Source: a virus (taxonomy: Duplodnaviria > Heunggongvirae > Uroviricota > Caudoviricetes). Taken from it: DNA of 3,402 nt. A program made the position numbers and the translations under genes. Positions 1 through 3,402 of this stretch are shown here, one piece after another. The notes under the pieces were generated by a model that searched no databases, was not told where the DNA came from, and saw only the letters and a list, made by a program, of their open reading frames with translations. The stretch is taken from IMG/VR virus record IMGVR_UViG_2778261300_000007; one strand, 5' to 3'. The first letter of the stretch is position 1, and each line of letters starts with the position of its first letter.

Positions 1-1143
1 CTATGCTGTTTTGATATCTACGATAATCCAGTCTTTACCACGATCATCATTGTATCGGTCGGTCATTTTTCTGGATTTATGGCCTAACAACTTTTGCGTA
101 TCCAGACCCTGTTCCCGATATAACCGTTCTGACAGAGATCGCTGCTCATGAAATGTGGGCGCAGTTCCTTGCTCCCATTTTATGCCACATTTTTCCCTGG
201 CCTTTTTAAAAGCCGTTGTCAGAGTATTTGCAGAAACCTGGTCTCCTCTGTTTGCTTGAGAGGTAGTGTGACGGTAATGGACCAGATATTTACTAACAAC
301 AGCATCCCTGCACTGAGATATAACTTCACGAAGGGTAATATTCAGAGCATCGCATTTCAGGTTAAGCGGAATAGCAAGTTTTGAACCGGTTTTTTCCTGA
401 GTAATGTGCAACATGTCGTCCCAGATATCAGAGAATTTCAAATTGCAGATATCACCTAAACGTTGTCCAGTAACAAGAGCAAGTAGCATGCCGCATTTTA
501 AATAGGGCTGCCGTCTGCTTACGCTTTCAAATATTGCCTGCCATTCGGGCAGTGACAATCTTTGGCGGTTTACTCGATTTCGCGGTTGTTTTGTTGCCTG
601 CGCTGGGTTAAATCCTGGCGGAACATGTCCTGCGTGTTGTGCTTCTTTGAAGACGTCGATCAACACCATTCTCACGACTTGCGCCATCCTGTTATGACCT
701 TCAGCCTTTACAGCATCAATTATTTCGGCAATATCAAGTGCGGTAATATCCTTGAGGTGTTGCATTCCACAATGCTCACGGAAAAGACGAATGGGTTTGC
801 CTTTTTGCCGATAGGAGTTGGGTCTTAGTTCATTATGTTGCAGCCTGTCCTCCTGGATAGAAATATATTTATCAAGCCATTCTGTCACCGTAATGTCTGA
901 GCGCCTGCCTTTCATTCTTTCCAGACGCTCATTGACGCTTAATATTTGTCTGGTACGTTGTTCAGCAATAATGGTATTTGCTTCAGTAGCAACTTGTTTT
1001 GCTTCATTCTCATCAGTTCCTAAGCTATGAAAACGACCGGATAGTGGATGTTTGTATTGCCAATATACCTTTCCGGTTCGCTTATCTAATTTGCAATATA
1101 AATTGGGTATAGAGATTTTGTGAGATCGGGGTCTAGCAGCCAT
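1..1143 (-). CDS. int: Site-specific tyrosine recombinase, lambda-family phage integrase (380 aa, complete)
   Basis: Full ORF with ATG at 1143..1141 and stop at 3..1. Conserved lambda-Int-like catalytic motifs are present: TGQRLGD (Arg), HEQRSLSERLY (His-x-x-Arg), LLGHKS (His) and DRYNDDRGKDW (Tyr nucleophile), closely paralleling lambda Int TGQRVGD / HELRSLSARLY / LLGHKS / SQYRDDRGREW as recalled. The start overlaps the xis 3' end by 11 bp, the classic xis-int arrangement. Confidence 0.9.
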   Translation of the reverse strand: MAARPRSHKISIPNLYCKLDKRTGKVYWQYKHPLSGRFHSLGTDENEAKQVATEANTIIAEQRTRQILSVNERLERMKGRRSDITVTEWLDKYISIQEDRLQHNELRPNSYRQKGKPIRLFREHCGMQHLKDITALDIAEIIDAVKAEGHNRMAQVVRMVLIDVFKEAQHAGHVPPGFNPAQATKQPRNRVNRQRLSLPEWQAIFESVSRRQPYLKCGMLLALVTGQRLGDICNLKFSDIWDDMLHITQEKTGSKLAIPLNLKCDALNITLREVISQCRDAVVSKYLVHYRHTTSQANRGDQVSANTLTTAFKKAREKCGIKWEQGTAPTFHEQRSLSERLYREQGLDTQKLLGHKSRKMTDRYNDDRGKDWIIVDIKTA

Positions 1144-1369
1144 CAGCGATTATCCGTTGGAGTTTTGGGTTTGCGTTTATTGGGAGTTGCGGTTCTGCAA
1201 GCGTTCCTACAAAACGGGAATTTCGGTCAATCATCCAGTAGCGACCAACTTTTATAGCGGGTGGGGCCATCATTTTCCCTTGCGCGTATTTTTTCAGAAC
1301 TCGCTCACTTGGTGCTAAGTCCCCAAATTCTTCTTTAGCCCAGTCCTGTAAAGTGATTAGTCGAGACAT
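1133..1369 (-). CDS. xis: Excisionase / recombination directionality factor (78 aa)
   Basis: Immediately upstream of and overlapping int. The N-terminus MSRLITLQDWAKEE... and PPAIKVGRYWMI parallel lambda Xis MYLTLQEWNARQ... and PPPVKDGREYLF (winged-helix Xis fold). A strong SD (GAGGAGG, complement of 1374..1380) lies 4 nt upstream of the ATG at 1369..1367. Confidence 0.8.
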   Translation of the reverse strand: MSRLITLQDWAKEEFGDLAPSERVLKKYAQGKMMAPPAIKVGRYWMIDRNSRFVGTLAEPQLPINANPKLQRIIADGC

Positions 1370-1442
1370 TTGTCCTCCTCTTAGCTGCTGAGGGAGTTTG
1401 TGACCGATATATCTGACATGATATTAAGCTCATGGCAGGTAC

Positions 1443-1465
1443 ATCTCTTGACTGGTCATAGAGAT
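1443..1465. promoter_or_regulatory. 23-bp imperfect palindrome (ATCTCTTGAC-TG-GTCAtAGAGAT) in the intergenic region upstream of xis; candidate protein-binding (operator-like) site
   Basis: Read directly: 1443..1452 ATCTCTTGAC is the reverse complement of 1455..1465 GTCA(T)AGAGAT apart from one extra T. It lies in the 139-bp gap between the 79-aa gene stop and the xis start. No flanking T-tract on either strand, so it is unlikely to be a terminator. Confidence 0.3.
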
Positions 1466-1508
1466 AAATTTAATGCTGAGAAATGCAGTATTGAATTTAT
1501 CAATTTTT

Positions 1509-1748
1509 CTATTTCCTGCGTATGGCACGTAACTTCTTAATGTGTTCTGCCGTTTCGATCTCTTCTGCTATCCGATCTGCATCAGCTTTATTCACAGGTT
1601 CAAAGTCATGATTAAAGCGGAACATGCTGGCGATACATGTTCTGCCTTTTCGGATGTAGTGAACTTTGTTGTGGGTAGAACGCAGGATTTTGCAGGGAGT
1701 GCCGTGGTGGTCGACGTACCAGGTGTTAGGAAAAATGATTCTGAACAT
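1509..1748 (-). CDS. Hypothetical small phage protein (79 aa), family not assigned
   Basis: ORF with a good SD (GAGGTG, 5-nt spacer) upstream of the ATG at 1748..1746. Co-oriented with int/xis and with the upstream TraR-like gene, 47 bp gap. Basic C-terminus (KKLRAIRRK). No recognisable catalytic motif; family assignment would need an HMM search. Confidence 0.55.
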   Translation of the reverse strand: MFRIIFPNTWYVDHHGTPCKILRSTHNKVHYIRKGRTCIASMFRFNHDFEPVNKADADRIAEEIETAEHIKKLRAIRRK

Positions 1749-1795
1749 TTTTACACCTCAGTTGGACGATGTTGAAATTTGCTGCTTTGAGGCCA

Positions 1796-2014
1796 TCACA
1801 GTCCCCATTGTTTGTTCTTAAGTTCGATCTCCTCCTGGCAACTTGCACAAGTCCGACAACCCTGAACGGCCAGGCGTCTTCGTTCATCTATCGGATCGCC
1901 ACACTCACAACAATGAGTGGCAGATATAGCCTGGTGGTTCAGGCGGCGCATTTTTATTGCTGTGTTGCGCTGTAATTCTTCAATTCCTGATGCTGAATCA
2001 ATGATGTCTGCCAT
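1796..2014 (-). CDS. TraR/DksA-family C4-type zinc-finger protein (72 aa), phage TraR-like RNA polymerase-binding regulator
   Basis: Four-Cys motif CECGDPIDERRRLAVQGCRTCASCQ matches the TraR/DksA zinc finger (compare F-plasmid TraR CEACGNPIPEARRK...CVECQ as recalled). Size (~72 aa) and position in a phage early-left operon are as in lambdoid TraR homologues. AGGGA lies upstream of the ATG at 2014..2012. Confidence 0.85.
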   Translation of the reverse strand: MADIIDSASGIEELQRNTAIKMRRLNHQAISATHCCECGDPIDERRRLAVQGCRTCASCQEEIELKNKQWGL

Positions 2015-2063
2015 CTTTCATTAATCCCTGAATTGTTGGTTAATACGCTTGAGGGTGAATGCG

Positions 2064-2090
2064 AATAATAAAAAAGGAGCCTGTAGCTCC
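2064..2090 (-). terminator. Candidate rho-independent terminator (minus-strand sense) between the 71-aa gene and the TraR-like gene
   Basis: On the minus strand: GGAGC-TACAG-GCTCC (5-bp GC-rich stem, 5-nt loop; plus 2076..2090) followed immediately by TTTTTTATTATT (complement of 2064..2075). The stem is short, so strength is uncertain. Confidence 0.4.
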
Positions 2091-2112
2091 ATGATGATTT
2101 TGTTTTTCATGC

Positions 2113-2328
2113 TCACCGTTCCTTAAAGACGCCGTTTAACATGCCGATCGCCAGGCTTAAATGAGTCGGTGTGAATCCCATCAGCGTTACCGTTTCGCGG
2201 TGCTTCTTCAGTACGCTACGGCAAATATCATCGACGTTTTTATCCGGGAACTGCTGTCTGGCTTTTTTGATTTCAGAATTAGCCTGACGGGCAATACTGC
2301 GAAGGGCGTTTTCTTGCTGATGTGTCAT
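2113..2328 (-). CDS. Hypothetical protein (71 aa from ATG at 2328; the ORF track gives a 93-aa version from the ATG at 2394)
   Basis: Open frame ending at the TGA at 2115..2113. The internal ATG at 2328..2326 overlaps (ATGA) the stop of the candidate 27-aa micro-ORF and has a weak GGGA upstream. The longer start at 2394 has no SD, and its extension (MHFSGSGLHILCAYACRHGTCS) is Cys-rich and atypical. Start choice is unresolved. No recognisable family motif. Confidence 0.5.
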   Translation of the reverse strand: MTHQQENALRSIARQANSEIKKARQQFPDKNVDDICRSVLKKHRETVTLMGFTPTHLSLAIGMLNGVFKER

Positions 2329-2408
2329 TGAACAAGTCCCATGTCGGCAAGCATAAGCACACAGAATATGAAGCCCGCTGCCAGAAAAATGCATTCAGTG
2401 GTTGTCAT
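2325..2408 (-). CDS. Candidate 27-aa hydrophobic micro-protein (MTTTECIFLAAGFIFCVLMLADMGLVQ), not in the ORF track
   Basis: Reverse-complement translation of 2408..2325. The ATG (2408..2406) overlaps the TGA stop of the 74-aa ORF (2407..2405) as ATGA, and its TGA stop (2327..2325) overlaps the ATG of the 71-aa ORF as ATGA. It exactly fills the 77-nt gap and has a purine-rich stretch (GAGAGAGACCAGG) upstream. The hydrophobic core suggests a single short membrane helix. Confidence 0.3.
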   Translation of the reverse strand: MTTTECIFLAAGFIFCVLMLADMGLVQ

Positions 2409-2629
2409 ACCTGGTCTCTCTCATCTGCTTCTGCTTTCGCCACCATCATTTCCAGCTTTTGTGAAAGGGATGCGGCTAACGTATGAAATTCTTCGTCTGT
2501 TTCTACTGGTAGACCTCTAAATCGTGCACAGGCTCTGGCGAAGATCGCAGAAATCAAAGCTAAGTTTGGGCTGAAAGGAGCAAGTGTATGACGGGCAAAG
2601 AGGCAATTATTTATTACCTGGGGACGCAT
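2405..2629 (-). CDS. Doubtful 74-aa ORF (hypothetical); may instead be non-coding divergent control region
   Basis: ORF present in the track, but there is no SD upstream of the ATG at 2629 and the first 14 codons are antisense to the well-supported plus-strand Cro-like ORF. The only in-frame alternative start (TTG) also lacks an SD. The C-terminal part is protein-like and its stop is ATGA-coupled to the micro-ORF, so it is not excluded. Confidence 0.2.
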   Translation of the reverse strand: MRPQVINNCLFARHTLAPFSPNLALISAIFARACARFRGLPVETDEEFHTLAASLSQKLEMMVAKAEADERDQV

Positions 2630-2761
2630 AAGAGTTTCTGTGCGCAGGACGTTGCTGCGGCAACAGGTGTGACAGTAACCTGCATAAATCAGGCAGCAGC
2701 TAAAATGGCGCGTGCAGGAATCCTGGTCATTGATGGTAAGGTCTGGCGAACGTTTGTTTAA
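2588..2761 (+). CDS. Small Cro-like helix-turn-helix DNA-binding protein (57 aa), not in the ORF track
   Basis: ATG at 2588 preceded by a strong SD (AAGGAG at 2575..2580, 7-nt spacer); stop TAA at 2759..2761. The translation MTGKEAIIYYLGTHKSFCAQDVAAATGVTVTCINQAAAKMARAGILVIDGKVWRTFV has HTH plus beta-hairpin spacing like lambda Cro ([30 protein letters not shown] as recalled, versus ATGVTVTCINQAAAKMARAGILVIDGKVW). It is divergent from the leftward small-gene operon. Confidence 0.5.
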   Translation: MTGKEAIIYYLGTHKSFCAQDVAAATGVTVTCINQAAAKMARAGILVIDGKVWRTFV

Positions 2762-2907
2762 CGGTTAGCTACTCAGGATGATAGGGCGCGGCAAGTGAGT
2801 ATGAAGCGGATTTTCAGGAATGCCATCAGAGTTTGGAAATAAAGTGGGTTTTCTAGTGGCAAGAGACTTGATAATATTTAGTTCTTTGAAGCCAAGGAGA
2901 TAGGGTT

Positions 2908-3402
2908 ATGAGAAAATTTATTTTAGCCTTTGTCATAAGTGCCTCGTTTACAGCAAATGCTGGTGTAGAGAAGTTAGGGCCGTGGATAACAAAGTCTGAG
3001 ATAAATAAAATGACTGACCAGACTGACTTTGTGGCTCTTAATTTATCACCAGATTCATATAACAAAGCAGGTACTGATCGTGCAACTTCACTGGTGTTGC
3101 GTTGTAGTGATAACAAAACAGATGCCTATTTATCATTCAATGATTATATGGGTTCGGACAACCCAAGAATTACAGTGCGGTTAGATGGCGGAAAGCCGGT
3201 CAAGAGTGTTTGGGGTGGTGGGGAAGGCGGCGATTCTGCATTTGCTCCACAACCAATACAATTTATAAAGACCTTGGCTAAGCATAAAAAAGCTATTTTT
3301 GGGTTTGAACCTTATGGATCAACTATGCAAGTAGTTGAGTTTGACTTGTCTGAGATTGATAAGGTTGTGGAAAAAATTTCACAGTCTTGCAATTGGAAAT
3401 GA
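2908..3402 (+). CDS. Exported (periplasmic/secreted) protein of unknown function with N-terminal signal peptide (164 aa)
   Basis: Strong SD (AAGGAG at 2895..2900, 7-nt spacer) before the ATG at 2908; stop TGA at 3400..3402. The N-terminus MRKFILAFVISASFTANA-G has a basic n-region, hydrophobic core and A-x-A signal-peptidase I site. The mature part has exactly two Cys (possible disulfide) and a Gly-rich loop (VWGGGEGGD). No catalytic motif recognised. Confidence 0.75.
   Translation: MRKFILAFVISASFTANAGVEKLGPWITKSEINKMTDQTDFVALNLSPDSYNKAGTDRATSLVLRCSDNKTDAYLSFNDYMGSDNPRITVRLDGGKPVKSVWGGGEGGDSAFAPQPIQFIKTLAKHKKAIFGFEPYGSTMQVVEFDLSEIDKVVEKISQSCNWK

Follow-up and report, generated by a model that had tools for sequence, protein, structure and literature searches.

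The window analysed here, a stretch of 3,402 nt of viral DNA, raises the question why an integrase and an excisionase gene are followed, in less than 3 kb, by what looked like a divergent Cro-like regulator. The first-pass annotation had taken this for a very compact lambdoid layout. The following features were identified:

1..1143, minus strand: tyrosine integrase of phage-21 type (icd-integrating), 380 aa, intact; Pfam Arm-DNA-bind_1 (1.7e-28) and Phage_integrase (1.1e-23)
1133..1369, minus strand: excisionase xis, 78 aa, intact; Pfam Exc (6.7e-06), phrog_629 excisionase (5.4e-36)
1509..1748, minus strand: DUF4222 protein, 79 aa; Pfam DUF4222 (1.4e-19), annotated in phage 4A7, phage 21 and RefSeq prophages
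1796..2014, minus strand: TraR/DksA-type C4 zinc-finger protein, 72 aa; Pfam zf-dskA_traR (1.2e-08), phrog_54 (5.4e-25)
2021..2110, minus strand: small ORF of about 29–30 codons; phage 4A7 gp38, phage 21 gp39 'putative secreted protein'
2113..2328, minus strand: λ orf61 homologue, 71 aa; phrog_303 (1.3e-35)
2405..2511, minus strand: 3' remnant of a λ orf63/DUF1382 homologue, 35 codons and stop; DUF1382 match, intact protein in N1420
2508–2511, no strand: very probable deletion junction; 4-nt microhomology GGTA, present in both parental sequences
2508..2591, plus strand: 3' stump of replication gene P, last 27 codons and stop; 99.9% to the end of the EC21Z-014 'replication protein P'
2588..2761, plus strand: ren, short 57-aa allele; phrog_7054 (4.6e-41 over 57/57), phrog_142 'Ren-like exclusion protein' (1.2e-19)
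2908..3402, plus strand: exported 164-aa VasI-like protein with signal peptide ('TagO' in RefSeq); Pfam VasI (5.3e-06), phrog_1848 (2.7e-70)

Family matches confirmed int (1–1143, minus strand), xis and the same-strand small genes that follow them, as well as the rightward gene for an exported protein. Numerous phages and prophages carry annotated copies of the window genes, which rules out chance ORFs. The left part of the window (1–2511) aligned to many E. coli prophages with 99.3–99.5% identity, and among the matches listed these alignments end at 2511. Phages 4A7, 1W, 3W and 21 align here as well, phage 21 with 98.3% identity, and the nearest relative shows 13 mismatches in 2511 nt. The integrase differs by one amino acid from that of the E. 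coli N1420 prophage and also matches the phage 21 'tyrosine integrase', and the excisionase is identical to the N1420 protein. The int and xis genes overlap by 11 nt; a λ-type integrase with an arm-binding domain and an overlapping excisionase gene are what is expected of a lambdoid leftward arm. The order int, xis, DUF4222, TraR, small ORF, orf61 and orf63 3' end is syntenic with phage 21 and Bievrevirus 4A7-type icd prophages such as N1420 (98–99.5%). The one difference is an extra 333-nt gene between DUF4222 and TraR in phage 21, which is absent from the window. The small ORF at 2021..2110 had no family match in Pfam or PHROG. For the TraR-like protein TIGR02419 (5.8e-14) stayed under the model cutoff, and NCBIfam otherwise added nothing. 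The phage 21 annotation of the orf61 homologue cites BLASTp similarity to λ orf61. Judged by homology, the small genes on the left form the usual set that phage 21 and λ have from the b-region to orf61/orf63, and they are not satellite-specific accessories.

The surroundings of the window are known from a single contig, Logan SRR29736265_6 (5,152 bp, reported in 4 samples), which was retrieved by an exact-protein look-up with a chimeric 74-aa ORF described below. It holds the window exactly, flanked on one side by the icd 3' end and integrase arm-type sites and on the other by a HEPN gene pair. The 174-nt flank matches the spacer between icd and int in N1420 without a difference and includes the TTCCCCAAAA sequences that the phage 21 annotation gives as arm repeats. 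The phage 21/4A7-type icd prophages have the same icd 3' end and arm-type sites beside int. Near-identity and synteny with their int–orf63 region, together with these flanking elements, mark the left block as phage-21 type.

The right part of the window (2508–3402) belongs to other relatives. It is 99.6–99.9% identical to the P-3' end/ren/TagO region, with 8 E. coli genomes among the matches listed, and 97% identical to phage IdasGreatGrand. The right-block alignments begin at 2508, and the nearest relative has 1 mismatch in 895 nt. The prophages with the order P–short ren–'TagO'–HEPN (EC21Z-014, STEC409 and 2017-02-1CC, together with phage IdasGreatGrand; 97–99.9% over this part) have the 57-aa ren allele and the 164-aa exported protein in common with the window. 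Unlike the window, they retain full-length P and everything upstream of it, and they are located next to ybhC, tRNA-Arg (intD) and torI/dsdC with other integrases. The P stump of the window translates as GRPLNRAQALAKIAEIKAKFGLKGASV up to its stop codon; an in-frame stop precedes it and it has no in-frame upstream start codon. The exported protein scored 26.7 bits against the Pfam VasI cutoff of 26.5. It is annotated as WP_001224618.1 in prophages at three other attachment sites and is a nin-region moron.

Between the P stump and the exported-protein gene lies the 57-aa ORF that had been read as a divergent Cro-like regulator. Over Ren residues 1–55 it is 91% identical to the intact 97-aa Ren of N1420 and 85% identical to phage 21 Ren. 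Its ATGA overlaps the stop codon of P, the same position that ren has in intact phages including λ. In contrast to λ Ren (96–97 aa, where full length would be about 96 aa), the ORF ends after 57 aa. The degenerate 3' half of ren continues to about 2856, followed by the TagO-like moron. PGAP labels this region 'protein ren, frameshifted; internal stop', a ren pseudogene. The short allele is common to viable phages and not specific to the window, and forms its own PHROG, phrog_7054.

A Cro identity was not supported. BLASTP gave no alignment of the ORF to phage 21 Cro or e14 YmfT, and Pfam gave no HTH/Cro match. A cro gene is the first gene of the pR operon and diverges from cI across tripartite operators, whereas this ORF directly follows the P stop and has no cI gene upstream. 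Between the divergent genes we found neither operator-like repeats nor CII boxes. A consensus promoter scan of the window returned 6 candidates compared to 6.2 in shuffled controls, the terminator and promoter scans revealed nothing informative in the intergenic regions, and an Rfam scan of the window found no known RNAs. On homology and position, the small helix-turn-helix-looking ORF is the front part of Ren rather than Cro. The proviso made at the outset, that the Cro-like ORF might prove spurious, thus came true in spirit: the ORF is real, yet it is not Cro. Likewise, the supposed non-lambda regulatory architecture dissolves, the 'regulator' being a Ren fragment directly after a 27-codon stump of P.

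How the two blocks came together was analyzed at single-base level, with the window aligned to phage 4A7 and to E. coli EC21Z-014 together. The parent switches at GGTA (2508–2511), and homology to 4A7 ends at 2511. In a simulation on the N1420 prophage the probability of a microhomology of at least 4 nt by chance was 0.017, and the four shared nucleotides are only modest evidence for a mechanism. The junction is internal to two genes, the orf63/DUF1382 homologue and P. Compared to the intact 63-aa N1420 protein, the orf63 remnant has lost its start codon, ribosome binding site and first 28 codons, and runs on as the chimeric 74-aa ORF (2405–2629) into the antisense of P'/ren. The Pfam DUF1382 match covers only residues 30–71 of this ORF, corresponding to profile positions 19–60 of 60, and positions 1–18 are absent.

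In intact relatives the two breakpoints are separated by 6,146–7,523 bp that hold the full early-left, immunity and replication modules. The phage 21/4A7-type prophages continue here with orf60a, exo, bet, gam, kil, a cI-type repressor, cro, cII, O and P codons 1–206, all of which are missing from the window. The phage 21 annotation places cIII, N, pL/OL, pR/OR, nutL/nutR and ori in the same interval; cIII, N and ori are likewise absent from the window element. Indeed, no immunity region (cI-type repressor, cro, OL/OR, pL/pR) was found in the window or on the Logan contig, and the replication module, made up of O with its ori iterons and P, is reduced to the final 27 codons of P. In order and orientation the blocks lie exactly as they would after a simple deletion inside one prophage, without inversion or foreign sequence. 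We conclude that the window very probably bears the scar of an internal deletion in a lambdoid prophage of the phage-21/4A7 type that sits at icd. The short distance noted at first is real, but it is the product of the junction at 2508–2511, and the gene at its end is ren. The exact parent and the size of the deletion are derived from mosaics, as no database genome joins an icd-type left arm with a TagO-type right arm. No single parent with both arms was found; of the right-arm genomes, the three closest that were inspected carry different integrases and have their prophages at other attachment sites.

Among the alternatives, a chimera of assembly or library preparation, in which pieces from different places in one lambdoid prophage, or from two of them, were falsely joined and the junction exists in no cell, fares best, and we still regard it as improbable. 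The junction was found on one short contig only. None of 5,426 complete E. coli genomes has a locus covering at least 80% of the window, and consequently the two blocks are not adjacent in any of them. An exact 24-mer spanning the junction had 0 matches in GTDB species-representative genomes, 0 in IMG/VR viral contigs and 0 in JGI metagenome contigs. In addition, the contig ends 1.5 kb beyond the TagO-like gene, at the point where the sequence diverges from its relatives, which makes it probable that the strain harbours several lambdoid prophages with repeats in common. However, the parents share only 4 nt at the join, which is far too short for a false de Bruijn or overlap join; from the way assemblers work, reads should therefore span the junction. 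The same contig was moreover reported from 4 samples, and its order and orientation are exactly what an internal deletion would give.

A naturally compact and functional mobile element, PICI-like or e14-like and regulated by a small divergent winged-helix protein, is less likely still. It would account for the intact int and xis, and the 57-aa protein is indeed weakly similar to a MarR-family winged-helix PHROG (phrog_1687, 2.1e-08). Also, in e14, which likewise occupies icd, int and cro lie no more than about 3.5 kb apart. Against it, the junction leaves non-functional stumps of orf63 and P, both halves are more than 99% identical to full-size lambdoid phages and prophages, and the 57-aa ORF is Ren by sequence, in the place after P that Ren occupies in viable phages and intact prophages; it lacks Cro/YmfT similarity and operator repeats. 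PICIs are characterized by an Stl- or AlpA-type regulator, a primase/rep gene with ori, capsid-redirection or packaging genes, a size of about 10–15 kb and no structural genes. These hallmarks are absent from the window and from the 5.2-kb contig, the content of which is that of a truncated full-size phage, and a PICI or satellite assignment is not supported. Membership of e14 was rejected, since IntE and the window integrase share only 60% identity and lit, ymfH–J, cohE (ymfK) and croE (ymfT) are all absent. The element shares with e14 the attachment site icd, whereas e14 retains repressor and cro (ymfK, ymfT), both of which it lacks. In the literature we found nothing that treats phage 21, icd and e14 together. 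The earlier suggestion of a reduced or mosaic element hence holds as far as a cryptic prophage that lost its recombination, immunity and replication modules is concerned, but not for e14, a PICI or non-lambda regulation.

In viable phages mosaic joints fall at gene or module boundaries and the full gene set is kept. Recombination of two phages at a module boundary, yielding a viable mosaic phage instead of a deletion, is the least likely reading: lambdoid phages are highly mosaic, the best matches of the left and right blocks lie in different prophages and the P-ren-TagO module occurs in prophages at several attachment sites, but here the join cuts into two genes, the element lacks cI, cro, N, O, ori and the greater part of P, and by what is known of λ biology such a product cannot replicate as a phage.

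If the window is a deletion scar, one illegitimate recombination at GGTA would have fused the leftward operon, at codon 29 of its orf63/DUF1382 homologue, with the rightward operon, at codon 207 of its gene P, and 6.1–7.5 kb carrying the recombination, immunity and replication genes would have been lost. The deletion appears recent and private, its recent date following from the intact remaining genes and the few mismatches to the nearest relatives (13/2511 and 1/895 nt). The element would be left without repressor, early promoters, antiterminator, replication origin and initiators, and should therefore be incapable of induction, replication or immunity. The intact int and xis would be severed from pL, and CII would no longer be encoded; for these reasons the prophage is probably trapped in the chromosome, cryptic and harmless. 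Functions lethal to an induced host are kil and the O/P-driven in situ replication. The deletion would take out exactly these host-killing functions, which fits selection of a survivor lineage. Expression as morons is still conceivable for self-contained genes that were left in place, such as those for the VasI-like exported protein and for the HEPN pair downstream of it.

The main value of the analysis is a correction: the apparent compact regulatory architecture is the scar of one deletion. The locus would be a clean and very recent case of a functional lambdoid prophage turned cryptic in one step, with lethal and self-propagating functions lost and integration genes and morons retained. The process is already well known. 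The K-12 cryptic lambdoid prophages (e14, DLP12, Rac, Qin) are defective and have lost essential modules by deletion (PMC6379469). They are old, fixed and heavily decayed, whereas the window element shows a single clean deletion and less than 1% divergence from intact relatives. It is an ordinary defective prophage and brings no new biology beyond this process.

There is a slim chance that the deletion derivative acts as a helper-dependent, satellite-like element. It keeps int and xis beside the arm sites, and possibly cos and late genes, but would itself carry neither an immunity nor a replication module. Excision, replication after recombinational rescue, or packaging could be provided by a lambdoid phage that is co-resident or superinfecting. 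Such a phage could also recombine with the element and spread the TagO-like/HEPN moron cassette. If true, the locus would be a snapshot of satellite-like dependency arising by a single deletion. PADLOC defence models matched no protein of the window; outside of it, the HEPN protein gave a weak match to PDC-M28A (1.8e-07).

The window is bounded by the stop codon of int at one end and the stop codon of a gene for a 164-aa exported protein at the other. The six-frame ORF list and the family scans revealed a row of leftward genes followed by two rightward ORFs:

1–1143, minus strand, int, 380 aa (Arm-DNA-bind_1, 1.7e-28; Phage_integrase, 1.1e-23)
1133–1369, minus strand, xis (phrog_629, 5.4e-36)
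1509–1748, minus strand, DUF4222 protein (Pfam, 1.4e-19)
1796–2014, minus strand, TraR/DksA zinc-finger protein (Pfam, 1.2e-08)
2021–2110, minus strand, 30-aa ORF annotated in phages 4A7 and 21
2113–2328, minus strand, orf61 homologue, 71 aa (phrog_303, 1.3e-35)
2588–2761, plus strand, 57-aa ORF, Ren by similarity
2908–3402, plus strand, VasI-like exported protein, 164 aa

The gene content described in the first-pass annotation was roughly borne out by this list, and the genes are real. No Rfam family was found in the window.

Megablast with the entire window as query, run on 5,426 complete E. coli genomes, produced matches in 3,854 of them and no place with at least 80% coverage. The best 20 E. 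coli alignments all span 1–2511 at 99.3–99.5% identity, and all end at 2511. The phage collection showed the same pattern (4A7, 1W, 3W, Perceval and others), with phage 21 at 98.3% identity. Searched alone, the remainder aligned over 2508–3402 at 99.6–99.9% identity in eight listed E. coli genomes; this query was at least 80% covered in 81 E. coli genomes and is 97% identical to the viable phage IdasGreatGrand. Features annotated under the right-block match are “replication protein P”, “protein ren” and “type VI secretion system-associated protein TagO”. The left arm is that of icd-integrating lambdoid prophages of the phage-21/4A7 group, and the right arm that of a widespread P–ren57–TagO–HEPN module. 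Phage 21 differs in an extra 333-nt gene between the DUF4222 and TraR genes (L007, 10726–11058), which is missing from the window (at about 1749–1795) and from 4A7/N1420-type prophages; the two kinds of left arm differ here by a small mosaic indel. The b-region of phage 21 and of 4A7-type phages carries, just upstream of the icd'-attP-int region, the sitABCD operon for an iron/manganese ABC transporter (4A7, L001, 3358–6807; phage 21, 3357–6806). This cargo operon would sit just past the left end of the window if the source strain has it.

The junction was located by a base-by-base comparison of the window with phage 4A7, representing the left parent type, and E. coli EC21Z-014, representing the right. 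The left parent is matched up to 2511 and the right parent from 2508 onward, with the four bases GGTA in common. When breakpoints were drawn at random in the intact N1420 prophage, the simulated joints showed an ambiguity of at least 4 nt with a probability of 0.017, which gives modest support to microhomology-mediated illegitimate recombination as the origin of the junction. On the minus strand, the breakpoint falls in the λ orf63/DUF1382 homologue, of which 35 C-terminal codons are left; residues 30–71 of the junction ORF correspond to positions 19–60 of the 60-position Pfam DUF1382 profile. The ORF runs on into antisense P'/ren sequence, giving a 74-aa chimera whose ATG is not preceded by a Shine-Dalgarno sequence. 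On the plus strand, the breakpoint falls in gene P, leaving the last 27 codons (GRPLNRAQALAKIAEIKAKFGLKGASV, followed by the stop codon) with an in-frame stop before them.

The intact relatives that we examined were phage 4A7, the N1420 prophage at icd, phage 21, EC21Z-014, 2017-02-1CC and STEC409. The distance from breakpoint to breakpoint, measured in N1420, EC21Z-014 and 2017-02-1CC, is 6,146–7,523 bp. In the relatives this interval holds orf60a/DUF1317, exo, bet, gam, kil, a cI-type repressor gene, cro, cII, O and codons 1–206 of P, to which the phage 21 annotation adds cIII, ea10, ral, N with nutL, pL/OL, OR, nutR and the ori iterons in O. The flanking genes keep the order and direction that a simple internal deletion would leave; neither an inversion nor foreign DNA is present.

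The junction-spanning 24-mer is absent from GTDB species-representative genomes, IMG/VR and JGI metagenome contigs. A single Logan contig, SRR29736265_6 (5,152 bp), is on record for the 74-aa chimeric ORF; it has been reported from four samples and includes the window at 100% identity. Its int-side flank of 174 nt comprises the 3' end of icd, a terminator and the TTCCCCAAAA arm-site region, and is identical to the sequence beside int in N1420 and phage 21. The other flank (1,576 nt) carries a HEPN-domain gene and its partner and shows one mismatch to EC21Z-014 in 1,547 nt; the last 29 nt diverge. Since a 4-nt overlap is too short for a false assembly join, we infer that reads must span the junction. 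A short contig would be expected if the strain holds several lambdoid prophages sharing nin and icd repeats.

The 57-aa ORF had been taken for a Cro-like regulator. This call was wrong, and the ORF is Ren. It shares 91% identity with residues 1–55 of the intact 97-aa Ren of N1420 and 85% with phage 21 Ren, and matches phrog_7054 over 57 of 57 positions (4.6e-41) and phrog_142, “Ren-like exclusion protein” (1.2e-19). Its start codon overlaps the stop codon of P, exactly the arrangement of ren. BLASTP against phage 21 Cro and YmfT, the Cro of e14, gave no alignment. The window contains no operator-like repeats, and no CII boxes were matched against 1.0 expected by chance. The resemblance of the ORF to a small regulator is explained by a weaker match to a MarR-type winged-helix PHROG (2.1e-08). 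The DNA past codon 55 is a degenerate 3' half of ren, labeled “frameshifted; internal stop” by PGAP. This short allele is common to many prophages and one viable phage and is therefore older than the deletion.

The N-terminal Ren allele (2588–2856 region, plus strand) occurs often enough to form a PHROG by itself, phrog_7054, and IdasGreatGrand retains it as an open ORF, although PGAP treats it as a pseudogene. This N-terminal, winged-helix-like half of Ren may be able to function on its own.

A PICI-like island had also been proposed, and no PICI hallmark was seen in the window or the 5.2-kb contig. The suggested e14-like identity was rejected, since the integrase is only 60% identical to IntE and lit, ymfH–J, ymfK and ymfT of e14 are missing. 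Only the reading as a reduced or cryptic prophage holds. The element is similar in kind to the K-12 cryptic prophages, which are defective via deletion, but much younger and cleaner. The genes that remain are intact, and their products differ from those of N1420 by 0–2 amino acids; the nearest relatives show 13 mismatches in 2,511 nt of the left arm and one in 895 nt of the right arm; hence, the deletion is recent. It is apparently private to one lineage. The phenomenon is ordinary and already understood, and this one private deletion allele is the only new item.

Judged from λ biology, the element would lack repressor, operators, pL/pR, N, O, P and ori, and should neither be induced nor replicate nor confer superinfection immunity. 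CII activates the λ int promoter pI. In the window, int and xis are intact yet would be severed from pL, and CII would no longer be encoded; therefore, excision should be rare. The outcome would be a stably locked-in cryptic prophage. The lost interval would include exactly the host-killing functions, kil and O/P-dependent in situ replication, consistent with selection of a lineage escaping prophage-mediated death, a general route to “grounded” or cryptic prophages (review, PMC6379469). Expression of self-contained morons may persist; the gene for the VasI-like exported protein has a strong AAGGAG ribosome binding site at about 2894.

Two small features lie in the leftward operon. A strongly hydrophobic 27-codon ORF (2325–2408, minus strand; MTTTECIFLAAGFIFCVLMLADMGLVQ) exactly spans the space separating the orf63 and orf61 homologues; its start lies in an ATGA overlap, and its stop adjoins the next ATG. 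It is absent from the annotation of 4A7, phage 21 and the RefSeq records examined, and could encode a small membrane peptide of the λ b-region/early-left operon that has escaped annotation. A terminator-like element was flagged on the plus strand at 1463–1501, antisense to the operon, within the 139 nt that separate xis from the DUF4222 gene. It consists of a 16-bp AT-rich inverted repeat and a T-run after it; the window has six such terminator-like matches, only slightly above the shuffled expectation of 3.1.

The VasI/TagO–HEPN cassette lies directly 3' of the degenerate ren half, where the nin region begins (window 2908–3402, plus strand; Logan contig L004, 316–1112; L002, 9401–11156). The 164-aa Sec-signal protein comes first, followed by the HEPN-domain gene, which overlaps a 133-aa partner. 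The HEPN protein shows a weak PADLOC match to PDC-M28A. The cassette was seen at four attachment sites of lambdoid prophages (icd, next to ybhC, tRNA-Arg and torI/dsdC) and in a viable phage. The 164-aa protein barely clears the Pfam VasI cutoff and is named “T6SS-associated protein TagO” in RefSeq; a T6SS-accessory-like exported protein is a curious phage moron.
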